Assembly (NCBI GenBank): GCA_020348445.1
Contig: CP070751.1
Span: 5,081,187-5,145,186 of the forward strand
DNA: 64,000 bases
Source: Thermoplasmata archaeon
Lineage (GTDB): Archaea; Thermoplasmatota; Thermoplasmata; GCA-020350865
Direction: 5' to 3'
Shown here: positions 1-13,817 of the stretch, in pieces
Numbering within the stretch: position 1 is the stretch's first letter
How the letters are laid out: each line of letters begins with the position of its first letter
Position numbers and translations under genes: made by a program
The notes under the pieces: model-generated
The model's database searches: none
What the model was told of the DNA's origin: nothing
The model's input: only the letters and a program-made list of their open reading frames with translations

Positions 1-1044
1 GATAAGAGCTTGGAATCGTTCAATAGTGCCTTAGAATTGACTAAAGGAAATAAGAATAAGATAGCGGAGATTAAGGCAAATATTGGGAGAATCTACCGGA
101 AAAAGGGAGAATATAATGAATCCATAAGGAAGTTAACAGAAGCCTTGGATTTAGTCAAAAATGAAGGAGGCAAAGAGGAAGCACTTGTCCTCGAAAAAAT
201 CGGCATGACTTATCTTAGGAGAGGAGATTACAAAAGAGCCTTTGAGTACTTAGAGAAGAGCCTAGAGATAGGGGAAATAATCGGTGACCAGAAAGATATA
301 GCAACTTGTCTCAAGAACATCGGTTGTATGTATTGGTCAAGAGGTGAACACGAAAAAGCTCTCAAGAACTTCGAGAAAAGCCTGAAGATACATGATAAGA
401 TCGGCGACCAGCCAGGTATTCATGCCTGCCTCAACAACATCGGCGAAGTGCATCGTATTAAAGGAGAATACGAAAGAGCCCTAGAGTGGTTGGAGAAAAG
501 CCTGAGGATAGGGGAGAAGATCGGCAACCAAATTGGTATTGGATTTAACCTCATCAACATCGGCAATGCGTACACCCAAATAGGAGAATATGATAAGGCA
601 CTTAAGCACTTAGAGAAAGGCCTTAAGATAGGTAAGAAGATCGGTGCACAAACTGTCATTGCCGATGGCTACTGGGTTACGGCTGAAACATATCTGAAGA
701 AAAGTGACATGAAAGGAGCATTAGATTTCTGCGATCGGGTATTCGATTTATCCAAAAAGACGGGTTCTAAGGAACATATCGCACACTCAAGGAGAATCTT
801 TGGTGGTATCTATTGCGAGCAAAAGAAGTGGGAAGAATCAATTGAGAATTTCCAGGAGAGCTTAAAAATTTTTAATGAAATTGGAATGAAGAATGAATTA
901 GGCAATGCCTACTATGAGTTCGGATTGATGTGGAAAGAAAAAGGAAACACCGAGAAGGCAAAAGAACATCTGAACAGTGCTCTTGATATTTTCGAGAAAT
1001 TGAATTTGGAGAAGCAAGCGGAAAAAGTAAGAAAGGAGTTATAA
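1..1044 (+). CDS. TPR-repeat C-terminal part of a probable STAND-ATPase/TPR protein (5' truncated by window edge)
   Basis: The frame is open from base 1 (gat aag agc ttg); the ORF-track start at 10 is only a TTG. About eight TPR-like repeats (e.g. LNNIGEVHRIKGEYERALEWLEKSL). Aligns by eye with the C-terminal ~345 aa of 1046-3856, including the ending EKVRKEL. Confidence 0.85.
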   Translation, partial: DKSLESFNSALELTKGNKNKIAEIKANIGRIYRKKGEYNESIRKLTEALDLVKNEGGKEEALVLEKIGMTYLRRGDYKRAFEYLEKSLEIGEIIGDQKDIATCLKNIGCMYWSRGEHEKALKNFEKSLKIHDKIGDQPGIHACLNNIGEVHRIKGEYERALEWLEKSLRIGEKIGNQIGIGFNLINIGNAYTQIGEYDKALKHLEKGLKIGKKIGAQTVIADGYWVTAETYLKKSDMKGALDFCDRVFDLSKKTGSKEHIAHSRRIFGGIYCEQKKWEESIENFQESLKIFNEIGMKNELGNAYYEFGLMWKEKGNTEKAKEHLNSALDIFEKLNLEKQAEKVRKEL

Positions 1045-1045
1045 A

Positions 1046-3856
1046 ATGGCAATCATTGATTCACATATACCATTAGTGGACAGAGTACTGGAGCTCGAAG
1101 AGCTGAAGACCCACCTCCACAACGCAACCAAGGGCCAAGGCAATCTTGTCTTCATCGCAGGCGAGGCTGGAGTGGGTAAAACCAGGTTGGTTGACGAGTT
1201 GAAAACCTATGCCCAATCTCAAGGTATCCAGATATTGCAGGGCTGGTCCTTATATGAATCCCTAACTCCCTACATGCCCTTTGTAGAAGCCTTGAGATCT
1301 GCAAATTTGGAACATCTGTTCTCACGGGAGGACCCTCCAAAAGTGGAGTGTGTATATCTTATAACGGACACTGGGTTATTGATAAAGGAAGTGCTGCGGG
1401 AGGAAACCAAACTAGATTCTACAATATTCGCAGGCATGCTTACAGCGGTCGGAGACTTCGTGAAGGATTCACTGACAATGCTCAGCGGGGAGGAAAAGAA
1501 TGAGGCACTCAATTCTCTTGGATATGAAAATTATCGGATTCTAATTGAAGTCGGTACGAATACAAATCTAGTTGTTATACTCACAGGAAAGGAAAACGAG
1601 TTTTTGATCAATGATATGAAAGAGGTTCTTGCTAACGTTGACCAGGAGTATGGAAATGTGCTAAAAGCCTGGGATGGTGATGACAATAGCGTTAGAGGAA
1701 TCGAGAATGTGTTAAAGCCACTAATCACCTCTGGAAAATATGACGGTATAGATTATGCAAAGGATGACCCAAAGATCAAGAGGAATAGATTATTTGAGAA
1801 CATCTCGTTAGGAATTGAAAGATACGCTAAAGTCAATCCTTCTATACTCTGCATTGAAGATTTGCAGTGGGCTGATCCTTCATCAATGGCACTCATGCAT
1901 TATGTAGCTCGAAATACACGAAAGTGCAATTTACTGATTCTTGGAACTTACAGACCTGAAGATGTTACTGCAATTAAGGAAGGGAAAGCACATCATTTGA
2001 TCGACGCAATGCAATTAATGAGCCGTGAGGATTTATATCAAATGATTGAATTGGAAAGGTTGGAAGAAGATCATATGGATGAGATGCTTACATCGCTTTT
2101 GGGCAAGACTGATTTCACAGATGAATTTAAGAAACAACTTTATAAAGAAACAGAAGGCAACCCATTTTTCATGGTATCACTCATCAGGATGTTGATTGAA
2201 GAAAAAACTATCGAGATGAAAGATGATGTTTGCACTCTCACGAAAGACTTAAAAGAAGTGCATATACCTTCGAAGGTGCACGATGTAATCATACGGAGAC
2301 TGAGTCGAGTGAAGGAAGAGAGGAGAGAAGTTTTAGATATTGCGGCGGTGATAGGTGAAGAGTTCACATCGACCTTATTGGCAAACACGACAAAACTCGA
2401 AAAAGTTCACTTGTTGAAGCAATTAAGAACCTTGGAACAAAGCCATAAACTGATTCGTTCATTCGGGCAAAAATACAAATTCGATCACGCAAAGATAAAA
2501 GAGATATTGTACCTCAAAATTCCCGAAGAATTGAGAATGGAATACCATACAATAATTGCAGATTCTATTGAAACCCTAAACAAGGACAATTTGGATGATA
2601 TGGTTGAAGACTTAGCATTTCACTACTATCATTGCAGGAACAGGGAAAAAGCCCTTCCATATCTCCTCAAAGCAGCGGAGAAGGCGAAAAAGGATTATTC
2701 AAATGAAGAGGCAATAAGGTTCTACAATGAAGCCCTGGAATTAGAAGAAGATGAACAGAAGAGGAGGGAAATATTCGAGGAAATAGGTGATATTTATGGG
2801 TTGATTGGAGATTATAATAAGAGCATAGAATCTTTAGAATGTGGACTGGAATTAGCTAGACAAAAGAATATAATAGCAGAAATCAAAGTGAAGATTGGTA
2901 GAATTTGTCAAAAAAAAGGAGAATACGACGATTCCATAAGAATAAGCACTGAGGCACTTGATTTGGTAAAAGGTGATGAATGCAAGGAGGAAGCGGAGGC
3001 TCTCGCTGCAATCGGTAATGTTTACCAATTCAAAGGAGAAAACGACAGAGCTCTCGAATATTTCAATAAGAGCTTGATGATAAGGGAGAAGATTGGAGAT
3101 CAAAAGGGAATTGCACGCATATTCAATGGTTTTGGTATATTACACGCAGATAAAGGGGAATACGACAACGCCCTTAAGGAATTCGAAAAGAGCTTAGAGA
3201 TAAAGAAAAAGATTGGTGACATACGGGAAATTGCCAAATCCTTCAACAATATCGGCCTTATGTACAATCTTACGGGAGACCTCGATAGAGCTCTGGGATA
3301 TTTCGAAAGGGGCTTAAAGATGCTTAAGAAGATTGGCGACTTGCGTTTAATTGGGGTCACCTTAAATAGTATTGGTGAAATGCATCTTATTAAAGAACAA
3401 TATGACGAAGCTATTAAAAATTATGAAAAGAGTATGGAGATTTGCGATAAGAATCAGATTAGAAGACCGGCAACTTACAATTATTGCGGACTTGCGGAGG
3501 CATATTATAAAAAAGGGAATCTTAAGAAAGCCTTTCATTTCTGTAATATGGCCTACGATTCATCCAAAGAGATTGGTGTCATGGAGAATGTTGCACACTC
3601 AAAGAGAATCTACGGCATGATCTATCGAGAGCAGAAGAAATGGGAGGAATCTATTGAGAATTTCGAGGATAGCATCAGAATTTTCAACGATATTAAAATG
3701 GAGAGGGGGTTGGGAAAATTGTATTACGAATATGGGTTGATGTGGAAGACTAAAGGGGATTCTGAGAAGGCAAAGGAGCATCTGAATAAAGCACTTAATA
3801 TCTACATGAAATTGAAGTTGGAAAAGCACGCGGAGAAGGTAAGAAAGGAGTTATAA
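1046..3856 (+). CDS. STAND-class (AAA_16-like) NTPase with inserted longin-like domain and C-terminal TPR array
   Basis: Walker A GEAGVGKT, Walker B LCIEDLQWAD, sensor GTYR and the STAND GxP motif EGNPFF are present. A ~130-aa insert (aa ~99-228) lies between Walker A and B. TPR repeats start at about aa 550. GGAG RBS; starts 1 nt after the upstream stop. Confidence 0.88.
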   Translation: MAIIDSHIPLVDRVLELEELKTHLHNATKGQGNLVFIAGEAGVGKTRLVDELKTYAQSQGIQILQGWSLYESLTPYMPFVEALRSANLEHLFSREDPPKVECVYLITDTGLLIKEVLREETKLDSTIFAGMLTAVGDFVKDSLTMLSGEEKNEALNSLGYENYRILIEVGTNTNLVVILTGKENEFLINDMKEVLANVDQEYGNVLKAWDGDDNSVRGIENVLKPLITSGKYDGIDYAKDDPKIKRNRLFENISLGIERYAKVNPSILCIEDLQWADPSSMALMHYVARNTRKCNLLILGTYRPEDVTAIKEGKAHHLIDAMQLMSREDLYQMIELERLEEDHMDEMLTSLLGKTDFTDEFKKQLYKETEGNPFFMVSLIRMLIEEKTIEMKDDVCTLTKDLKEVHIPSKVHDVIIRRLSRVKEERREVLDIAAVIGEEFTSTLLANTTKLEKVHLLKQLRTLEQSHKLIRSFGQKYKFDHAKIKEILYLKIPEELRMEYHTIIADSIETLNKDNLDDMVEDLAFHYYHCRNREKALPYLLKAAEKAKKDYSNEEAIRFYNEALELEEDEQKRREIFEEIGDIYGLIGDYNKSIESLECGLELARQKNIIAEIKVKIGRICQKKGEYDDSIRISTEALDLVKGDECKEEAEALAAIGNVYQFKGENDRALEYFNKSLMIREKIGDQKGIARIFNGFGILHADKGEYDNALKEFEKSLEIKKKIGDIREIAKSFNNIGLMYNLTGDLDRALGYFERGLKMLKKIGDLRLIGVTLNSIGEMHLIKEQYDEAIKNYEKSMEICDKNQIRRPATYNYCGLAEAYYKKGNLKKAFHFCNMAYDSSKEIGVMENVAHSKRIYGMIYREQKKWEESIENFEDSIRIFNDIKMERGLGKLYYEYGLMWKTKGDSEKAKEHLNKALNIYMKLKLEKHAEKVRKEL

Positions 3857-3857
3857 A

Positions 3858-4733
3858 ATGGCAATTAAAAAGAAAATCGTCCTTTTGGGCGATAGCGCTG
3901 TCGGCAAGACCAGTCTCATCCGAAGATACGTTTTCAACCAGTTCAAAGACTCCTACATCGCCACAATAGGAACCAAGATAACAAGAAAAGAGCTAAAAAT
4001 CCAAAGACCTCACCATTCTGTGGACCTCACCTTCGTGATATGGGATGTAATCGGTAGAGAAGGCTACCATGGCTTGCATGCCAGGACCTTTGCCGGAATA
4101 TCCGGTGCCATTCTGGTTGCTGACTTGACACGGAAGGAAACCTTAGAGAACCTGGAGCGATATTGGATTCCTCTTCTTCTCAAAGTCGTGGATAATGTCC
4201 CTTTAATTTTTGCTTGTAACAAATCCGATTTGGTAGGTGAGTACGAGTTTGAGCCAGAGGACATTACCAAGATGGCAGAAAGATACAACGGACGCATTGC
4301 ACGCATCCTCCCAAAAGGACTGTCTATCTCATATTCCACAAGTGCTAAGACAGGGAGCAATGTGGAACACACATTCGAAAGCCTTGGACACCTTCTGGTT
4401 TCCAGCTTCGATCTACAGGACCCCGTAAAGGAGCTTTACCAGAACGTGATTGCAATGGGCATTCACAGATCATCTGATAAGACAACGCCTATAGGAGCCC
4501 TTGATTCAATTATAATCGATTTCTGCGAGGGTTTTAAGGATTCCAGGATATCCATGATGATCCTGCGCCAGGAAATCGCAAGATCGGGTCTTGACATCAA
4601 CAATCCCACCAAAGCGGGAATTCTTACTGTGGTGGAATACCTAGCTGAAGCAGAGAACGAATTCAAGGATGAGAAGGAAGTTATTGATAACATGGAAAGA
4701 AGACTACAATGGGCTCAGGGTATAATTGAATGA
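3858..4733 (+). CDS. Rab/Ras-like small GTPase with ~110-aa C-terminal helical extension
   Basis: G1 GDSAVGKTS, G2 YIATIG, G3 WDVIG, G4 NKSD, G5 TSAK. No CAAX motif. Starts 1 nt after the upstream stop. Confidence 0.92.
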   Translation: MAIKKKIVLLGDSAVGKTSLIRRYVFNQFKDSYIATIGTKITRKELKIQRPHHSVDLTFVIWDVIGREGYHGLHARTFAGISGAILVADLTRKETLENLERYWIPLLLKVVDNVPLIFACNKSDLVGEYEFEPEDITKMAERYNGRIARILPKGLSISYSTSAKTGSNVEHTFESLGHLLVSSFDLQDPVKELYQNVIAMGIHRSSDKTTPIGALDSIIIDFCEGFKDSRISMMILRQEIARSGLDINNPTKAGILTVVEYLAEAENEFKDEKEVIDNMERRLQWAQGIIE

Positions 4734-5407: not shown

Positions 5408-6709
5408 ATGAGAAAAGCCGTAGCATATTTGATAGTGTTTGCCTTGGCTGCAATGGTATTGGCCACAGTTCCTATGTCCACTTCTGCTGGGTATGTTGGG
5501 GATGTTACGATCCTTAAGAATGGAAAAGTGGATCCGGCAAATGCGCCTATTTACGTTTCAGGATCCATATATACAATGACGGATGATATCACAGGGACCA
5601 TAACCATCGAAAAGTCCGGAATCACACTGGATGGTGCAGGTTTCACAGTAGGAGGTTCGGGAACAGGCAATGGAATATATCTTGAAGATGTGAACGGAGT
5701 AACCCTCATGAACCTGAATATCCATGGATTTTTGGATGGAATCATGATGATATCTTCCAACCACAATACAATAAAACAAAATACAGTGTCGCAATGTGTT
5801 GATGATTGTATTGATCTGAAAGGCAGCGATGGCAACACTATCAAAGAAAACATGATAACAAACAGTGGCCAAGTTAATATTGGCGATACCACCGATGAAT
5901 TATATGCAAATGGTATATTCCTTGAAGATTGTGATGATAACACCATAAAGGAAAATACAGTTTCCTATATCATAGATGACGCAATCTATCTGATATATTC
6001 AAGCGATAACACGGTAAAAACGAACATAGTTACAGATAGTACCTGGGGTATTGTCGCAGAAATGTCAAGCCATAACAATATAATAAAGGAAAACACAGTT
6101 ACAGATATGAGCTCAAATAGCATTGTCGTAGCCCTTAATTGTTTTAACAACAATATATGCCATAATGTAGTCTCCAATGCTGTATGGGGTGGTATTGCGG
6201 TAGCTAGCAATGCCAACAACAATATGGTAAAGGAGAACACCCTTTACAACACGAGAATTGGTGTTATGGTTTTCATGTCCAGTGGAAATTGCATTTGGGC
6301 CAATTCGGTTTCTGGTTGTATTTGGGAGGGAATCCGACTGCAATTTTCAAACGGAAACACGATTAAGGGAAACACATTGGAGCACAACTATCGAGGTATC
6401 CTGCTTATCAGGAATCCAGCAGGTGGAAGTAACCTTATAAAAGAGAATTCTATAAGGGAAAATGATGTTGGGATGATCCTCAGTTATAATTCATACGACA
6501 ATGTTGTTTACCACAACAATTTTGTGGCAAATGGAAACCAAGCAATTGACAATGGCATAGGAAATTGTTGGGACAATGGCGCTGAGGGCAACTACTGGAG
6601 CGATTATTCAGGGATGGATATGGATGATGACGGAATTGGGGATACCCCTTACTATATCAATGGTGTGGCAGGTTCCGCAGATAATTATCCATTAATGAAT
6701 CCTTGGTAG
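5408..6709 (+). CDS. Secreted right-handed parallel beta-helix (NosD/CASH-type) protein
   Basis: Signal peptide MRKAVAYLIVFALAAMVLA. Many NxIxxN/GIxL beta-helix repeats. Typical terminal GNYWSDY...DDDGIGDTPY...DNYPL motif. GGAGG RBS. Confidence 0.85.
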   Translation: MRKAVAYLIVFALAAMVLATVPMSTSAGYVGDVTILKNGKVDPANAPIYVSGSIYTMTDDITGTITIEKSGITLDGAGFTVGGSGTGNGIYLEDVNGVTLMNLNIHGFLDGIMMISSNHNTIKQNTVSQCVDDCIDLKGSDGNTIKENMITNSGQVNIGDTTDELYANGIFLEDCDDNTIKENTVSYIIDDAIYLIYSSDNTVKTNIVTDSTWGIVAEMSSHNNIIKENTVTDMSSNSIVVALNCFNNNICHNVVSNAVWGGIAVASNANNNMVKENTLYNTRIGVMVFMSSGNCIWANSVSGCIWEGIRLQFSNGNTIKGNTLEHNYRGILLIRNPAGGSNLIKENSIRENDVGMILSYNSYDNVVYHNNFVANGNQAIDNGIGNCWDNGAEGNYWSDYSGMDMDDDGIGDTPYYINGVAGSADNYPLMNPW

Positions 6710-7666: not shown

Positions 7667-10021
7667 TTATTTGGATACGTCCTTCACTTTTGCCCTATTC
7701 TCCTTTTCCACCCTCCCAATCTTCTTAATCTTCTTTACGAACATATCGATCATCTTGGGCATGACCTTGAACGTGGGAAGCAACATGGGCATGAACTGCA
7801 GCCTGTCCTTTTCTATCCCCAGTTCCTCCATCTTACTCCCGTACTCTTCGAGTCTCTTTTCAATTACCTCAGAAAGCTCCCCCCCTTCCTCATCAGACAA
7901 CAATATACCATCTGCGCCTTTTGAAAATGCGAACATAATATGTGCAATACTTATTCGTGCCGCAGAAGGCACCCTGATTATACGAATCTCGGGTGAATAG
8001 GACATCCTGGCCGTACCTGTAGAGTCTGCAGCCGTGTACGAGAGCCTGTCACCAAAGAATCCAAGTATCACTGGCTCTTTTTCTTCCTCCTTGTCCGCTA
8101 GAATGCCAGATATCTCGGCTAAAATCTGGGAATCTTTGTAATGATGCATGTCCAATGCATTATCATCGCATTCAGGAATACAGGCACCGCAGCCTGTGCA
8201 TGCAAAGGAGTCAAGAATGATCTCGGGCTCTATTGATATTGCAGAAACAGGGCATACAGGTACACATTTTCCGCATTTGGTACAGTTCTCTGGGATGATA
8301 AAGGCCTTTATCGGGTCCATCACCATCATGCCGTCACCAATAAACTCAATTGCCTTGGCTGCTGCACTGTTTGCATCTGTTACACATTCATGAATATCCT
8401 TGGGACCCAAAGCGCAGCCTGCAGAAAATATACCCACATGATGCGTGCTAACTGGATCCAGCTTGGGATGTTTTTCTGCAATAAAACCATCAGGACCAAG
8501 GGGGATTTTCAGAATCTTTGCCAAATTTTCGCTGTCCTTGGCAGGAAGTAAGGCAGGGCACAGAACCACCATATCAAATTCATTGTCAAAAATCTCACCT
8601 GCTGCCACATCCTCAGCCCGAACCACAAGGCCATTTTCTGAGGGGACAACCTCTGCACCTCGACTTTTTACAAAATTTACCTTGTACTCATCCTGGGCCC
8701 TCAAGTAGAACTCCTCGCAACCCCTGGTAGAAGCGCGGATATCAAGGTAGTACACCCATACTTCCATGTATCTAAAATATTCCCGTAATTGAACAGAGTG
8801 CTTGATTGCATATGTACAACCTACCTTGCAACAGTGGGCAACTCCCTTATTCACATCCCTTGAGCCAACACAAAGAAGATAACCGATCTTCTTCACCCTT
8901 TTTCCATCACTCAACCTCTTCAGCACCTTTCCCTCTGCCGCTTCATTGATAAACAATCTCTCCATTTGCATGGCAGATATGACATCTGGATGCTCAAAAT
9001 TGTACTCGGCTAGAGACATGGAATCAAATAGCTCAAATCCTGTGGCTGTGATAATTACCCCCACATCCAGCTCCAGTATCTTTTGCTCATCCTCTAAATT
9101 CACAGCAGCAACAGGGCATGCATCCACACAAGCTCCACACTCAGTACAGTTTTCAAAGTCTATGACATAAGAGGGCGGGACAGCCTGGGGAAATGGTTTG
9201 TAAATCGCTTTTCTCTGATACAGACCCTCATCAAACTCATGCACTACCTCAACAGGACATCCTTCAGAGCATTCACCGCAACACAGGCAAAGCTCTGTAT
9301 CCACACCCCTTGGTTTTTGGGTTATCTTGACGTTAAAATTACCTGGTGAACCTTCAACCCCTACAACCTCTGAACAAGTGAGTAGGGTGATATTTGGTTG
9401 AATGCTTAAGTCCGCCATTTTCGGAGCCAGGATGCAAGGCGAGCAGTCAAGTGTGGGATAGGTTTTACTGAGCTGTGCCATGTGACCACCTATTGAGGGA
9501 TTTCTTTCCAATAAAGTCACATGGTATCCGCTTTGGGCAAGCTGCAATGAAGAGGTAATACCGGCGATCCCACCGCCTATTACCAGCACATTCTTATTGA
9601 TATCCACTTTCTTGGATTCCAATGCTTCCAACTCCCTTGCCCGAAGAACTCCTGCGCGAACCAGATCAAGTGCTTTTTGCGTACCCAGTTGTTTGTCATC
9701 GTGAATCCATGAGCACTGCTCCCTTAGATTCACTTGAACAACAAGATACGGATTTAGACCTGCCTCCTCTGCAACATTCTTAAAAAGAATCTCGTGCATA
9801 TGTGGGGAGCATGCAGAAACAACCATCCCATCAAGCTCTTTTTCCTTGATTGCATTTTTTATTGACTCCAGATTCAGCTTAGAGCAAGTGAACTGTGTAA
9901 CTTCAACAAATGCAACACCCTCGATATTTTTCACTTTTTCTCCAAGTGATTCCACATCCACGGTTTTTGAGATGTTGCCACCGCAGCCGCATATGAACAC
10001 ACCTATTTTTTTTTCCGGCAT
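7667..10021 (-). CDS. hdrA: Heterodisulfide reductase subunit A-like flavoprotein fused to a C-terminal MvhD/FlpD-like domain
   Basis: GVFICGCGGNI, ACSP, NLREQCSW, FAD motif VIGGGIAG, TLDCSPCIL, CVGSRD, four CxxCxxCxxxC ferredoxin motifs and GCALGPKDI. C-terminal SYTAAD...IRIIRV...KGADG is MvhD-like. Confidence 0.9.
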   Translation of the reverse strand: MPEKKIGVFICGCGGNISKTVDVESLGEKVKNIEGVAFVEVTQFTCSKLNLESIKNAIKEKELDGMVVSACSPHMHEILFKNVAEEAGLNPYLVVQVNLREQCSWIHDDKQLGTQKALDLVRAGVLRARELEALESKKVDINKNVLVIGGGIAGITSSLQLAQSGYHVTLLERNPSIGGHMAQLSKTYPTLDCSPCILAPKMADLSIQPNITLLTCSEVVGVEGSPGNFNVKITQKPRGVDTELCLCCGECSEGCPVEVVHEFDEGLYQRKAIYKPFPQAVPPSYVIDFENCTECGACVDACPVAAVNLEDEQKILELDVGVIITATGFELFDSMSLAEYNFEHPDVISAMQMERLFINEAAEGKVLKRLSDGKRVKKIGYLLCVGSRDVNKGVAHCCKVGCTYAIKHSVQLREYFRYMEVWVYYLDIRASTRGCEEFYLRAQDEYKVNFVKSRGAEVVPSENGLVVRAEDVAAGEIFDNEFDMVVLCPALLPAKDSENLAKILKIPLGPDGFIAEKHPKLDPVSTHHVGIFSAGCALGPKDIHECVTDANSAAAKAIEFIGDGMMVMDPIKAFIIPENCTKCGKCVPVCPVSAISIEPEIILDSFACTGCGACIPECDDNALDMHHYKDSQILAEISGILADKEEEKEPVILGFFGDRLSYTAADSTGTARMSYSPEIRIIRVPSAARISIAHIMFAFSKGADGILLSDEEGGELSEVIEKRLEEYGSKMEELGIEKDRLQFMPMLLPTFKVMPKMIDMFVKKIKKIGRVEKENRAKVKDVSK

Positions 10022-10043: not shown

Positions 10044-13000
10044 TCACACCTTACTAGGGGTATCTTGAGGCTCCATTTCCATCATAAATCTTGGTAATAT
10101 CTCGGCGACCTCGTAATCCTTGCCTTTCTCCATTTTTCCTTCGACATCCTTTGCTTTTTCAGGCGAAATAAGAGAGATATTTATCCTTCCTCCTTCCTCT
10201 GAATATTTCTTGTCTATTATGGCCAATCCATGTTGTAGGCCCTCCACAAGAACGCAGCTTGTCACTGTCCCAATTTCCTTTTCCTCCAAATTGTATACAG
10301 GGTAGCCTGGTCTTATTGCACGGATGCCCCGAGATTCCATCCTGTACCTTACAATTGATCTATTCCACCCAAGGAACCTTGAAAACTGTCCTTCCCTGCC
10401 TATGAAAAAAGGCTTGTGAAACTTCACAAAGGAGCCGTACCCTGCTTCAATGGGGTCTATGTCATGATCCCCGGCAAGCTCATGACCGTACAACGGAAAT
10501 CCTGCCTCAGTTCTTGTTGAATCCCTTGCTCCGAGACCACAGGGCTTGATTCCAAAAGGCTCGCCTTTTTCCAAAAGAAGATTCCAAATATTCGGGGCAT
10601 CGTCTGGATGAAGATAAAGCTCAAATCCGATCTCTTCACCCGTGTAACCAGTTCTTGAAATCATAACATCAATTCCTTGTAGCTTTGCAAAAATAAATTC
10701 CAATTTTTTTAGCCTGGCCAATTCTAAGCCCGTGGAATCATCAGCACATTCTTGAAGGATTTTTAGGGAATTGGGACCCTGGAGGCTGAGGTCGATTTTT
10801 CTATCGGGTCCACAGGATTCGTCCTTTAAATCACGAATAGTTAAAGAACCCTCGATCTCTATCTCTGGATTGTTATTATCAATCATATATTGTTTTGTAG
10901 CTACAGCCTCAAGCCAGGCCTTGATCTTGTCCATGTTCACAGCATTTACCACCATCATGTATTTCTCATAATCCAGACGATAGATAAAGACATCATCAAG
11001 GACATTACCCCCAGGATCAAGAATATATGAATAATGGGACTGTCCAGGTCTTAGCCAGGGAACGTAGTTAGTCGTCACAAAATCCAAAAACCGAGTGGCG
11101 TGCTCCCCCGAAAATTCCAAAATACCCATATGGGAGACATCGAACAATCCAGCTGTTTCCCTGACTGCCTCATGCTCATCACTTGTCTTGGTGTACCAAA
11201 GCGGCATTTCCCAGCCAGCGAAGGACGCCATCTTCTTTGTAAGTTTTATATGTTCATCATTTAGGCAACTTTTTTTAAGGGATTTTTCTTCAGGAACATA
11301 ATCGTATTTCTTTTTAATGGAGTCTTTCTTTTGTATTCCTTTTACTATCTGTTTTTGGCCAACAAAGTACGACTTGTTCAAATCAAAGAATGATTCATGG
11401 TTCTGATAAAGGGTAATCCCATCTGATTTCTGCATTTCATCAAGATTTGGCAGCCCTGATTCTTTTTGTATTCTTTGCCTAGCATTTAATCCAGCGGCTT
11501 TGATTCCCAAAGCCTTCCCAGTAAGTAATATTTTATCCCAGATTTTTTGTACACTGGATGGGGAAATAAACATATCATATCCTAAAAAGTCTCCATGAGA
11601 CTCGCATGAGACTAATATATCGACATCATCTATCTTTCCCTTTGAAAAGTATGAAGGTTCAAGAGACCCCACCTCAGGAACCAACTTAGTCATTATCTCT
11701 TTAGCCATCGGGCCTATCAGAGCCAAGGCAGTCATTTGATTCTTATCTTCCACCTCCTTCAAGTCCCTAACCACGCAGGGACCCTCCACCTTCATAAAAA
11801 CGTCATCATCAAAAAGGACGTAACCATCTGAAAGAGCGCGTAACCAGGTTTTGATCCTCTCACAACTTGCTGAGCTTGTTACAAGAATGCACCTGCTTCT
11901 TTCCTTTCTATCATGCTCCATCCTGAGAATATGAACATCACCCATGGGCTTAGAATCCTTATACAGGAAGAAACCCCAGGCTCCCATGCCAGGTGGAAGG
12001 CTGCCTACATCCTTTGTTACAGTCTGCTGCAAAAAGGGCATCACCCGATCTGTATCTCCAGATATCTCGAGAATCCCCAGATCCCACATGTCAAATAAAG
12101 CAGCACCCTCCTTTGCTGCCAAAAATTCAGATTCAGAATCTCCATAATGTATGGGAACAACAGGACCACTTGTATCCTCAAACTTCCCATTTAACAACTC
12201 ATGTTGAGCTTTCAGAGGAGTATCCTTGGCTTTCATCTCATCAATTGAGTAATAATGGGGATACCCACTTGACAAACTCACCTTATCCCTGGCAAGGCTC
12301 TTTTCCAGCTCTGCAACCTCGGCTTTAATCTCTTCCATTAGATCGAAATCGATTTTTCCACGGCCAGTTTCTCTCACACCGCCAAGATAATAAAATGGAT
12401 GTATGTTGGTTAAAACCTTGTGAACCAGATATGCTATCTTCTCCATCTCCTTTTTACCCATACCTCTTTGGGTTGCCCATGTGGTTCCAAGTCTTATTGC
12501 AGAGGGATGCACAGGATTTTCATCACCTACAATGGCGTTCTTGTTGCACGTAAGACCGCACAGATCAAGTATCCTGGATACGGCCTCACCACTCATCTGA
12601 TAACCTGTCTTAGATTTTATGCCCTTTAGGTCAATTAAAACCATATGAGTATTTGTGCCCCCGTAGGCAAGTTTAAGACCCAGGGCTTCAAGGGACTTGC
12701 CAAGATGCTCTGCATTCTTAACTATTTGTTTGGATAGCTCCTTGAACTCTTGCGTCTGCGCTATCTTGAAACAAACGGCCTTAGCAGCTATATTGCAGAT
12801 GTGTGGCCCCCCCTGCTCACCTGGAAACACGGCAGTTTCAATTAACCTTGCCTTTTCCTCGTCAGTTGTTATAATCACAGCACCTCTTGGACCGCACATG
12901 GTCTTGTGGGTTGTAAATGCCGCAATGTCGGCGATTCCCACGGGATTGGAAACAACGCATGCAGAAACCAAGCCTGCAGTATGTGCAATATCAGCATGCA

Positions 13001-13817
13001 GTATGCAACCTCCTTCAACTGAATCTGCAATGTCCCTCATTTTTTTCCAGTCAATATCCCAGGGATATGCACTGTATCCTGCTATAATCATCTTGGGTTG
13101 ATGCTCCTTGGCAAGTATTTTAATTGCCTCATAATCAAGCCTTCCAGTGGACAAGTTTACAGTGTAGGGGATGATATTGTAGAACTTGCCCGAACGGTTG
13201 GCTTCGCTTCCATGCGTGAGATGACCACCAGAATCCAGAGCCATACCCATTACCGTGTCTCCAGGCTCCAAGAAAGCCTCGTACACAGCGTTGTTTGCAG
13301 CTGCACCAGACAGGGGCTGGACGTTGACAAAAATCCTCTCTACAGAAACCTCCTTTGATACAAAGAGCTCTGCACAGCGTTTCTGAGCCAGGGCTTCAAT
13401 AAAATTAACATAATCAACGCCTTTGTAGTACCTCCTGTCAGCGTATCTTCTCTGAAATGTAAGCTGCCTGTCAAAATCCAGAAGCTCGTCTCTTTCGTCG
13501 CGGATGTACCTCATATGTGGATAACCCTCAGCATAAAGGTTGGTAAAAACAGAGGCCAGAGCTTCCTTAACAGGCGCAGGGCATATACTCTCAGATGCTA
13601 TGAGCATTATCTTTCTGGCTTGCCTTTCCTCTTCTAGGTTGATCAGGTAGTCGGTCTCGGGATCCACTGTTGACAGCTCATCTTCAAAGAAGAAATTAGA
13701 AGGCGCTTTTGAATTGGTCATCACAACACCCCAATTATGCAAAATCTCAGGTGATTTTGCATTCGCCACCATACCAAATTCCAGGTACAAATAGTTTTTT
13801 ACAAAGACCTTGAGCAT
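10044..13817 (-). CDS. glyA-gcvT: Fusion of serine hydroxymethyltransferase (GlyA), a degenerate GcvT-like domain and a complete glycine-cleavage T protein
   Basis: SHMT motifs LIASE, YAEGYP, NVQPLSG, GGHLTHG, DIAH, TTHKT (PLP Lys), FPGEQGGP, IRLGT. GcvT motifs FAGWEMPLWY, GLFDVSHMG, SRTGYTGE, CGLGARDSTRTEAG. The true start may be a downstream Met. Confidence 0.92.
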   Translation of the reverse strand: MLKVFVKNYLYLEFGMVANAKSPEILHNWGVVMTNSKAPSNFFFEDELSTVDPETDYLINLEEERQARKIMLIASESICPAPVKEALASVFTNLYAEGYPHMRYIRDERDELLDFDRQLTFQRRYADRRYYKGVDYVNFIEALAQKRCAELFVSKEVSVERIFVNVQPLSGAAANNAVYEAFLEPGDTVMGMALDSGGHLTHGSEANRSGKFYNIIPYTVNLSTGRLDYEAIKILAKEHQPKMIIAGYSAYPWDIDWKKMRDIADSVEGGCILHADIAHTAGLVSACVVSNPVGIADIAAFTTHKTMCGPRGAVIITTDEEKARLIETAVFPGEQGGPHICNIAAKAVCFKIAQTQEFKELSKQIVKNAEHLGKSLEALGLKLAYGGTNTHMVLIDLKGIKSKTGYQMSGEAVSRILDLCGLTCNKNAIVGDENPVHPSAIRLGTTWATQRGMGKKEMEKIAYLVHKVLTNIHPFYYLGGVRETGRGKIDFDLMEEIKAEVAELEKSLARDKVSLSSGYPHYYSIDEMKAKDTPLKAQHELLNGKFEDTSGPVVPIHYGDSESEFLAAKEGAALFDMWDLGILEISGDTDRVMPFLQQTVTKDVGSLPPGMGAWGFFLYKDSKPMGDVHILRMEHDRKERSRCILVTSSASCERIKTWLRALSDGYVLFDDDVFMKVEGPCVVRDLKEVEDKNQMTALALIGPMAKEIMTKLVPEVGSLEPSYFSKGKIDDVDILVSCESHGDFLGYDMFISPSSVQKIWDKILLTGKALGIKAAGLNARQRIQKESGLPNLDEMQKSDGITLYQNHESFFDLNKSYFVGQKQIVKGIQKKDSIKKKYDYVPEEKSLKKSCLNDEHIKLTKKMASFAGWEMPLWYTKTSDEHEAVRETAGLFDVSHMGILEFSGEHATRFLDFVTTNYVPWLRPGQSHYSYILDPGGNVLDDVFIYRLDYEKYMMVVNAVNMDKIKAWLEAVATKQYMIDNNNPEIEIEGSLTIRDLKDESCGPDRKIDLSLQGPNSLKILQECADDSTGLELARLKKLEFIFAKLQGIDVMISRTGYTGEEIGFELYLHPDDAPNIWNLLLEKGEPFGIKPCGLGARDSTRTEAGFPLYGHELAGDHDIDPIEAGYGSFVKFHKPFFIGREGQFSRFLGWNRSIVRYRMESRGIRAIRPGYPVYNLEEKEIGTVTSCVLVEGLQHGLAIIDKKYSEEGGRINISLISPEKAKDVEGKMEKGKDYEVAEILPRFMMEMEPQDTPSKV

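Follow-up and report, generated by a model that had tools for sequence, protein, structure and literature searches.

A longin-fold domain nested in a STAND ATPase encoded next to a Rab-like GTPase gene in a Thermoplasmata archaeon

Results

The locus

The window analyzed here is a stretch of 64,000 nt from contig CP070751.1 (positions 5,081,187-5,145,186) of a Thermoplasmata archaeon, whose genome consists of one contig of 5,156,303 bp. Near its left end lies the gene for P0001, a STAND ATPase of the AAA_16 type with a C-terminal tetratricopeptide repeat (TPR) array, in which a separate domain with the fold of a longin is nested between the Walker A and Walker B motifs. The P0001 gene is directly upstream of the gene for P0003, a Rab-like small GTPase, which starts 2 nt past the P0001 stop. 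A second protein of the same architecture, P0002, is encoded at the right end of the window; P0001 and P0002 share 35% identity over 595 aa, and the two inserts can be aligned with each other. The positions of all these features are reported in Table 1.

The TPR array at the left edge of the window belongs to a tandem paralogue of P0001. It is a third STAND-longin-TPR protein of 937 aa, encoded by an open reading frame (ORF) located at 5079417-5082230 of the genome, whose start falls outside the window. Its nested domain (aa 98-227) is 85% identical to the P0001 insert.

Table 1. Position of the features described in the text, in window coordinates.
Feature	Position	Strand	Evidence or remarks
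C-terminal TPR array of the upstream tandem paralogue	1-1044	+	5'-open ORF; TPR_12 and other TPR families
P0001, STAND (AAA_16) NTPase with nested longin-fold domain and C-terminal TPR array, 936 aa	1046-3856	+	
P0001 Walker A GEAGVGKT, aa 39-46	1160-1183	+	
P0001 longin-fold insert, aa 98-227	1337-1726	+	Profile match, AlphaFold2 models, fold matches to longins
P0001 return linker and helix into Walker B, aa 228-266	1727-1843	+	Nearly invariant columns (alignment), secondary structure (NOD model)
P0001 Walker B ILCIEDLQWAD, aa 267-277	1844-1876	+	
P0001 TPR sensor array, about aa 530-936	2633-3853	+	TPR_12 E 4e-51, TPR_MalT E 3.5e-14
P0003, Rab-like small GTPase, 291 aa	3858-4733	+	Ras E 1e-28, Roc E 7e-24
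P0003 G3 motif WDVIGRE	4041-4061	+	
P0003 conserved C-terminal extension, ~110 aa	4389-4730	+	
Ribbon-helix-helix (RHH, CopG-like) protein, 63 aa	4937-5128	+	PF12441 E 1.9e-6, 29 bits (cut-off 28)
Secreted NosD/beta-helix protein	5408-6709	+	NosD E 8e-38, Beta_helix E 3e-29; hydrophobic N-terminus
P0002, STAND-longin-TPR paralogue, 938 aa in the genome	61993-63999	+	3' open at the window end
P0002 Walker A	62173-62196	+	
P0002 insert, aa 122-249	62356-62739	+	
P0002 Walker B	about 62857-62892	+	

The insertion within the ATPase core

The AAA_16 profile matches P0001 with an E value of 1e-19, its positions 2-166 (of 167) being distributed over residues 10-298 of the protein, about 120 of which have no counterpart in the profile. 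P0001 shows all the features of a STAND AAA_16/TPR protein, namely Walker A, Walker B, a nucleotide-binding oligomerization domain (NOD) composed of nucleotide-binding, helical and winged-helix domains, and a repeat sensor following it. An initial annotation of the window had reported a segment of ~130 aa at 1340-1730 and a homologous one at ~62356-62740 in the second paralogue. The boundaries set by the profile, 1337-1726 and 62356-62739, agree with these within a few bases. The same annotation had placed the paralogue at 62056, which corresponds to the second ATG of an ORF starting at 61993.

A search restricted to P0001 residues 90-240 retrieved 164 full-length relatives; those carrying source names derive almost all from metagenome-assembled genomes of Thermoplasmata/Methanomassiliicoccales. 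In over 100 homologues, about 227 aa separate Walker A from Walker B. A scan of reference genomes added few new insert-bearing loci and mostly returned bacterial AAA_16 proteins devoid of the insert, which provide a baseline. They align with P0001 on both sides of the domain, and only a linker of about 35-40 aa replaces the β-β-α-β-β-β core present in P0001 and in three Thermoplasmata relatives included in the same comparison. The insertion of a domain of ~130 aa between Walker A and Walker B is real, in P0001 as in P0002.

Six NODs of the P0001 type are found in the genome, four with the domain and two without it. The two domain-less ones belong to tandem STAND-TPR paralogues located at 4223856-4228868; in one of them Walker A and Walker B are separated by 149 residues, which may hold a different or degenerate insert.

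Conservation was evaluated in 62 homologues. Residues G39, E40, G42, G44 and K45 of Walker A are invariant. The linker leading from the domain back to the core, P0001 aa 229-252 (nt 1730-1801; SGKYDG..Y....P...RN.LFEN), is nearly invariant at S229-G-K-Y-D-G234, P242 and R246-N247, and its conservation exceeds that of the longin domain itself. The loop by which the insert leaves the core is short and variable in the relatives. In the NOD model described below, this exit point is predicted to lie on the surface of the P-loop core, in a loop flanked by the helix following strand β2 and by the helix that runs into the Walker B strand. The NOD of this model matches the structures of Cdc6/Orc1, NRC2 (a plant NLR), MalT and PH0952 (a STAND-TPR protein) at Z scores of 12.4-15, with ZAR1 also among the matches.

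Fold of the inserted domain

The domain was modelled by AlphaFold2 in two ways: alone, using as input an alignment (A1) of the 21 genomic copies of the segment, and as part of the NOD (P0001 aa 1-480), using a separate alignment (A2) of 62 sequences. The model of the isolated insert (pLDDT 81.5, pTM 0.75) shows the order β1 β2 α1 β3 β4 β5 α2 α3, with strands at residues 3-11, 16-21, 61-64, 67-73 and 77-84 and helices at 29-48, 89-111 and 117-130. In the NOD model (pLDDT 87.6, pTM 0.81) the P-loop core is intact, and the insert forms a separate excursion of the same topology, with strands at P0001 residues 99-107, 112-117, 157-160, 163-169 and 173-180, helices at 125-147 and 185-207, and short helices reaching to about residue 228. 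No helix precedes β1, except for a turn of four residues (aa 89-92) belonging to the ATPase, and the additional helices are C-terminal. The insert therefore does not follow the Roadblock order α1-β1-β2-α2-β3-β4-β5, which begins with an N-terminal helix.

Both models were compared with about 48,000 PDB representatives, independently of Foldseek. The best matches of the insert model are longins, aligned over the whole domain: VAMP7 (4afi_B; Z 12.2, root mean square deviation (rmsd) 2.4 over 114 aa), Sec22 (3egd_C; Z 11.9), CPLANE (7q3d_C; Z 11.7), AP2 mu (Z 11.1) and TRAPP Bet5 (Z 10.6). Residues 94-237 of the NOD model match the VAMP7, CPLANE, Mon1-Ccz1 and Sec22 longins at Z 11.5-12.4 (5ldd_E at Z 11.6). 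Roadblock proteins score nearly as high: an Asgard Roadblock matches the insert within the NOD model at Z 10.9, and the insert model matches MglB at Z 10.4 and Asgard or bacterial Roadblocks at Z 9-10, the coverage being limited to model residues 1-112. Foldseek returned the same mixture of longin and Roadblock families for the insert. The β-β-α-β-β-β-α pattern had been read as the longin topology in the initial annotation, which named a non-longin fold, such as PAS or GAF, as the outcome that would speak against it. The longin topology is borne out by two independent models and by their best matches, and no PAS or GAF entry occurs among the top 50 structural matches of either model.

Sequence comparisons gave weaker indications. 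Isolated inserts matched no Pfam family at E ≤ 10, and NCBIfam returned nothing useful. The Longin profile PF13774 does not match any of the domain copies of the genome, and only one of 30 family members reaches Fuz_longin_1 (PF19036), at a sub-threshold E value of 0.0028; by sequence, the insert does not belong to the curated longin families of Pfam. Sub-threshold matches to the Roadblock family PF03259 were obtained for 5 of the 30 members (best E 0.0049). An hhalign comparison with the six PF03259 proteins of the genome gave a weak match, with a probability of 36% and an E value of 3.7e-4 over 95 columns in register. Several homologues bear the name 'Roadblock/LC7/MglB family' (COG2018) in JGI annotations. 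Profile searches of PDB sequences, built from 21 and then from 30 members, produced only designed proteins and noise, with MglB at an E value of about 0.4. These faint signals may lean to Roadblock rather than to longin. Since Roadblock Z scores are nearly equal to those of longins, and sequence signals point towards Roadblock, the insert is most safely described as a member of a new sequence family, which has the topology of longins and belongs to the longin/Roadblock superfamily.

A large and mobile domain family

When 1.84 billion cluster representatives were searched with a profile of the insert, 6434 clusters were assigned to its family at E ≤ 0.001; with the threshold set to E ≤ 1e-10, the number was 4339. 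The usual place of the domain is the extreme C-terminus of proteins of any size; sometimes it stands alone, and sometimes it is present in two or three copies. In ten representatives scanned, no Pfam family matched the domain itself, while PKD, Ig-like, CarboxypepD_reg, DUF11, beta-propeller or DUF835 domains were found upstream of it. The domain is not special to STAND proteins; most of its occurrences are on receptor tails.

The 21 copies of the genome are distributed over 19 ORFs: four STAND-TPR proteins, one protein of 2171 aa with three copies, two short ORFs (176 and 193 aa) containing little besides the domain, and twelve giant ORFs of 1635-5179 aa. Each of the giant ORFs begins with a hydrophobic segment and features a strong membrane helix, from whose end the domain is separated by 5-25 residues; judging from their sequence, they have the layout of single-pass receptors with a putative juxtamembrane cytoplasmic longin-fold tail. 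Six canonical Roadblock genes are also present in the genome, separate from the 21 copies.

In a tree of the domain, which is unrooted and built on a short sequence, a clade with a support of 99 unites 29 STAND inserts, drawn from this genome and from others. The few remaining ones, including that of P0002, fall close to this clade, though their placement is unsupported, and all the STAND inserts together lie within the receptor-tail domains. It is conceivable that a STAND gene captured the domain only once. No description of this domain family, or of a GTPase expansion in Thermoplasmatota, was found by full-text searches of the literature.

The GTPase P0003

The motifs G1 (GDSAVGKT), G4 (NKSD) and G5 (TSAK) of P0003 conform to those of Ras/Rab proteins. 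The G3 motif departs from the DxxGQ pattern, as Arg67 replaces the catalytic Gln; G66 and R67 are both invariant in eight members of the subfamily, comprising orthologues and paralogues from three genomes. Because of this Arg, P0003 probably depends on a partner for hydrolysis, or is a slow switch. Its best relative of solved structure is a Thorarchaeota Rab (7ezb, E 1.4e-28), followed by Rab7, Rab11, Rab21 and Rab35. No COR domain was detected on P0003.

Full Ras-type motifs are found in 34 proteins of the genome. P0003 and five of its paralogues share a size of ~290-310 aa, GDSxVGKT near the N-terminus, WDxxGR, NKxD, SAK, and an extension of ~110 residues, which is well conserved and for which no relatives were detected; a search of the ESM Atlas gave no usable match for the extension of P0003. 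Among the other 28 Ras-like GTPases, 22 keep GQ.

Other GTPase sequences were noticed in the genome. About 2 kb before the window, at 5078866-5079168 (+) and just upstream of the tandem STAND paralogue, there is a fragment of a GTPase extension, 49% identical and interrupted by one in-frame TAG, which is probably the remnant of a further GTPase gene. Two arrays of six and three genes for Rab-like GTPases of ~280-300 aa, mostly of the GQ type, occupy 3131528-3153037 and 3703376-3717366, and directly adjoin giant receptors, of 5179 and 3605 aa respectively, with longin-fold tails. The C-terminal extensions encoded in these arrays are distant homologues of that of P0003 (26-38% identity).

Association of the domain with Ras-like GTPases

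A GTPase gene is found within 500 bp of 5 of the 19 domain-bearing ORFs; in 2000 random draws the number averaged 0.29 and never exceeded 3. About nine domain genes lie in a GTPase cluster, if tandem domain genes sharing one array are counted.

The association was also evaluated at the genome level, on a fixed sample of 301 genomes of the phylum, with a threshold of E ≤ 1e-20 for the Ras family. The domain family is present in 42 genomes and the Ras family in 43; both are present in 41, only the domain in 1, only Ras in 2, and neither in 257. All 13 genomes in which a full STAND-longin junction was identified fall within the doubly positive set, and the pattern holds family by family.

At the gene level, a paralogue located near 25 kb of the genome is directly followed, like P0001, by the gene for a ~290-aa WDxxGR GTPase with the conserved extension. 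A GRE-type GTPase of ~291 aa, belonging to this subfamily, adjoins the orthologous STAND-longin-TPR gene also in the complete Thermoplasmata genomes CP070726, CP070767 and CP070672, where it is located upstream or downstream, and in one case behind a tandem pair of STAND genes. On a contig labelled Hermodarchaeota, a Ras gene lies 4 kb from the STAND homologue.

A further case is provided by the complete genome G150 (3.58 Mb), which lacks a STAND-longin gene. Here, the gene for a GRE GTPase divergently adjoins that for a multi-pass membrane protein of 439 aa ending in the same domain, whose nearest neighbours in the domain tree are the STAND inserts. On account of this arrangement, the GTPase pairing seems to follow the domain rather than the ATPase. 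A second GRE GTPase of the same genome is encoded beside a PAS-histidine kinase.

Downstream genes and other genes of the window

The gene for the RHH protein is located 204 nt downstream of that for P0003. Five copies of this protein are encoded in the genome, four of them directly downstream of GR-type GTPases; in G150, a further copy follows a GRE GTPase. No RHH gene was found downstream of the GR-type GTPase at the CP070726, CP070767 and CP070672 loci, and for this reason it was left out of the conserved core module; it is a candidate output regulator, which may provide a transcriptional output at this locus. The NosD/beta-helix protein may be a regulated target gene. A search of sequencing runs identified no RNA runs, but only sediment-metagenome DNA runs from one study and a small share in a mangrove run.

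Further to the right, two genes are located on the reverse strand. One (7667-10021) encodes an HdrA-like FAD/4Fe-4S protein of 784 aa fused with an MvhD/FlpD domain. The other (10044-13817) is a single ORF of 1257 aa in which serine hydroxymethyltransferase (SHMT, E 3e-118) is fused with a glycine-cleavage T-protein domain (GCV_T, E 6e-103), an unusual folate one-carbon fusion. Most of the window is occupied, from 19557 to 61648, by very large ORFs of 1810, 1573, 1931, 971, 1627 and 4940 aa. The gene for the largest is divergent from that for P0002, and the A1 profile detected no longin-fold domain in any of them.

Discussion

The proposed role of the insert

We propose, with a probability of about 0.55, that the insert serves P0003 as a platform for docking or regulation; physical binding would be part of such a role, and the domain could act as a guanine nucleotide exchange factor (GEF), as a GTPase-activating protein (GAP) or through an effector relation. 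The proposal is based on the longin fold of the domain, on its conserved pairing with a GTPase gene, which seems to follow the domain, on the proximity of domain and GTPase genes within the genome, on the co-occurrence of the two families in genomes, on the GEF and GAP platforms already known, and on the precedent, discussed below, of a domain inserted at the same general position in RuvBL proteins. Small GTPases are served by GEF or GAP complexes made of Roadblock and longin proteins, such as MglB, Ragulator, GATOR1, FLCN-FNIP, Mon1-Ccz1 and TRAPP, the GTPases served including MglA, Rag, Rab7 and Rab1 (PMC9481161). A 2026 preprint makes the general remark that GTPases are often found in the company of profilin-longin-like domains.

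P0001 would thus be a cytoplasmic STAND switch, made of a TPR sensor arm and an ATP-driven NOD. In STAND-TPR proteins, autoinhibition by the sensor arm is released by an inducer, and multimerization is driven by ATP (PMC6468293); by analogy with its family, P0001 is expected to multimerize in an ATP-dependent manner upon binding of an inducer. The binding of a ligand to the TPR arm, together with the ATP-dependent opening or oligomerization of the NOD, would alter the presentation of the longin face, and this would in turn set the nucleotide state or the localization of P0003. The output of the GTPase may then pass to the small RHH DNA-binding protein encoded at the locus.

Several observations weigh against this role. 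Longin domains serve also as plain dimerization or adaptor modules, and likeness in fold is no proof of function. The conservation of the insert peaks in helix α1 and in the WDG motif, which are at most putative parts of a GTPase interface. The co-occurrence counts include related, non-independent genomes, so that a Fisher p-value calculated from them overstates the case. No GTPase is encoded within 17 kb of P0002, the nearest being 17 kb away, nor within the 10-13 kb of sequence around distant STAND-longin loci (three tandem genes in G096; G016, L033, L035 and L036). By coordinates, only about 3 of 17 STAND-longin genes in four genomes have an adjacent GTPase. The extension typical of P0003 was detected in only 5 of the 301 genomes, compared with at least 13 for STAND-longin genes. 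Given the loci without a neighbouring GTPase and the restricted distribution of the extension, adjacency characterizes one subclade and occurs only sporadically outside it, the co-occurrence at the genome level being the more general signal. The adjacent GTPase to which the initial annotation had called attention is accordingly a feature of P0001 and its close orthologues, but not of P0002 and of most distant STAND-longin genes.

Alternative explanations

These same loci fit the main rival explanation, in which the insert is a pairing module that docks the STAND protein onto domains of the same family, located on receptor tails or in stand-alone copies; the ATP switch would be recruited to the membrane, and the GTPase would be only an indirect neighbour. 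The genome offers suitable partners, since the same domain directly follows the membrane helix in the 12 giant surface proteins and makes up the two short ORFs, and some proteins contain two or three copies of it. Roadblock and longin proteins are, moreover, typically homo- or heterodimers (PMC9481161). Pairing alone leaves unexplained the near-perfect co-occurrence with Ras-like GTPases and the dedicated GR-type GTPase found beside the P0001 clade in four genomes, and we consider it unlikely as the whole explanation. The pairing and platform models are not exclusive, as a heterodimer could itself be the platform for a GTPase, in the way of Mon1-Ccz1 or Ragulator. The insert might instead work inside the NOD, much as domain II does in RuvBL1/2, as a regulatory or structural element that tunes ATP hydrolysis or oligomerization, or contacts the TPR arm of the same protein, with no GTPase partner at all. 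The general position of the insertion is the same as in RuvBL, the return linker is more conserved than the domain, and P0002, like many other STAND-longin genes, lacks a neighbouring GTPase gene, all of which would agree with an internal function; this explanation is nevertheless rather improbable, in that the domain family is mobile, is found also outside any ATPase, on receptor tails and in stand-alone form, and tracks Ras-like GTPases across genomes.

It is very improbable that the insert is a sensor of small ligands belonging to the profilin-like group (PAS/GAF-like), acting as a second input to the STAND switch. α/β sandwiches of this general kind do include ligand-binding domains, and helix α1 contains conserved polar residues (D28, D45), but the top structural matches are all longins or Roadblocks, PAS and GAF being missing from the top 50 of both models, and no sensor family of Pfam is matched. 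Equally hard to sustain is an Avs-like anti-virus STAND system, in which the insert would be an effector or a sensor of viral proteins. Defence systems commonly include STAND-TPR proteins, the family has expanded into many paralogues, some of them tandem duplicates, weak BrxC_BrxD matches were obtained, and Avs3 and Avs5 appear among the fold matches of the NOD at Z 11.4-11.6. On the other hand, PADLOC matches only generic TPR models and gives none for the GTPase, P0001 has no nuclease, protease, SIR2 or TIR effector domain, and the neighbouring genes encode a GTPase, an RHH protein and a secreted beta-helix protein, rather than defence functions.

Significance

Longin and Roadblock domains, together with Rab and Rag GTPases, are regarded as a hallmark of eukaryotic membrane traffic, and in prokaryotes they are mainly discussed for Asgard archaea. 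The same pairing is found here at scale in one Thermoplasmata genome, whose 5.16 Mb encode 34 Ras-like GTPases and 21 longin-fold domains. The location of the P0001 gene directly upstream of a Rab-like GTPase gene suggests an undescribed arrangement, in which an ATP switch is coupled to a GTP switch in archaea other than Asgard. The components are of known kinds; their nesting and wiring are new. The architecture had not been recognized as characterized in the initial annotation, and indeed full-text searches of the literature brought up no report of a STAND ATPase harbouring a longin or Roadblock domain. To our knowledge, wiring of this kind, in which an ATP switch would directly set a GTP switch, has no known example in any domain of life.

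A wider view, which we put forward only tentatively and regard as doubtful, is that some Thermoplasmatota lineages, outside Asgard, run a eukaryote-style signalling layer, in which one longin-fold family would serve as a universal adaptor for dozens of Rab-like GTPases, both on receptor tails, for outside-in signalling, and within STAND proteins, where it would make an ATP-gated GEF or GAP of its host. For study, the most accessible case is the STAND-nested one, which consists of a soluble protein and a partner gene 2 nt away, and the P0001/P0003 pair offers a direct in vitro route to whether an oligomerizing switch driven by ATP controls a GTPase. If true, the platform role would give a function to a family of over 6000 clusters without a Pfam model, and the invariant Gln-to-Arg replacement in the partner GTPase poses a mechanistic question about the source of catalysis.

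Comparison with known systems

The order β-β-α-β-β-β-α-α is common to the insert and to eukaryotic longins, which include Mon1-Ccz1 (acting with Rab7-Ypt7), TRAPP Bet5-Trs23 (with Ypt1), CPLANE Fuzzy-Inturned, SRX of the SRP receptor, VAMP7, Sec22, Ykt6, and the sigma, mu, zeta and delta subunits of AP/COPI. The insert superposes on them as a whole, at Z 11-12.4 with an rmsd of 2.4-3.4 over 113-133 residues. The neighbouring GTPase, P0003, is likewise Rab-like, its best eukaryotic sequence matches including Rab7, Rab11, Rab21 and Rab35. The insert differs from these longins in having no significant match to a longin family of Pfam; compared with the multi-subunit GEFs, the domain is nested in a P-loop NTPase or placed on receptor tails, and its activity on GTPases is putative.

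The core β-β-α-β-β-β sandwich is shared, at Z 9-10.9, also with MglB/Roadblock-LC7 proteins (PF03259, COG2018), the partners of MglA, with the LAMTOR subunits of Ragulator, with the C-terminal domains of Rag and with Asgard Roadblocks. Like MglB, the family of the insert is genomically linked to a Ras-like GTPase, in the case of P0001 and its orthologues though not of P0002. Unlike Roadblocks, the insert has no N-terminal helix and has two C-terminal ones.

As to the host protein, P0001 shares with the STAND-TPR proteins of the MalT/PH0952 group (fold matches of the NOD model to 8bob_D at Z 13.5 and 6mfv_A at Z 12.4) the Walker A and B motifs, the organization of the NOD into nucleotide-binding, helical and winged-helix domains, and the C-terminal TPR arm. 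It differs from the known ones in the lack of a DNA-binding or enzymatic effector domain, and we know of no STAND-TPR ATPase with a folded domain between Walker A and Walker B. A parallel for the insertion is found in RuvBL1/RuvBL2 (Rvb1/2, TIP49), AAA+ proteins in which a separately folded domain II lies between Walker A and Walker B and projects from the core. RuvBL1/2 are the top Foldseek matches of the whole model (E 1e-8), with a TM score of only ~0.3, so that the likeness is an architectural analogy, not a homology. The inserted domain of RuvBL1/2 is an OB-fold, whereas that of P0001 is longin-fold.

For the GTPase, a parallel is offered by the Roc domain of LRRK2, which has Arg at the position of Ras Gln61; the Roc family of Pfam is among those matched by P0003 (Table 1). 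Finally, prokaryotic sets combining a sensor, a Roadblock protein and a GTPase are known in the ROCO proteins and in the conservons of Streptomyces, composed of CvnA (a sensor kinase), CvnB (a Roadblock), CvnC and CvnD (a Ras-like GTPase). In comparison with conservons, the sensor is here a STAND ATPase and the platform domain is nested inside it, instead of being a separate protein, while the GR-type GTPase that adjoins a PAS-histidine kinase in G150 recalls the conservon layout.

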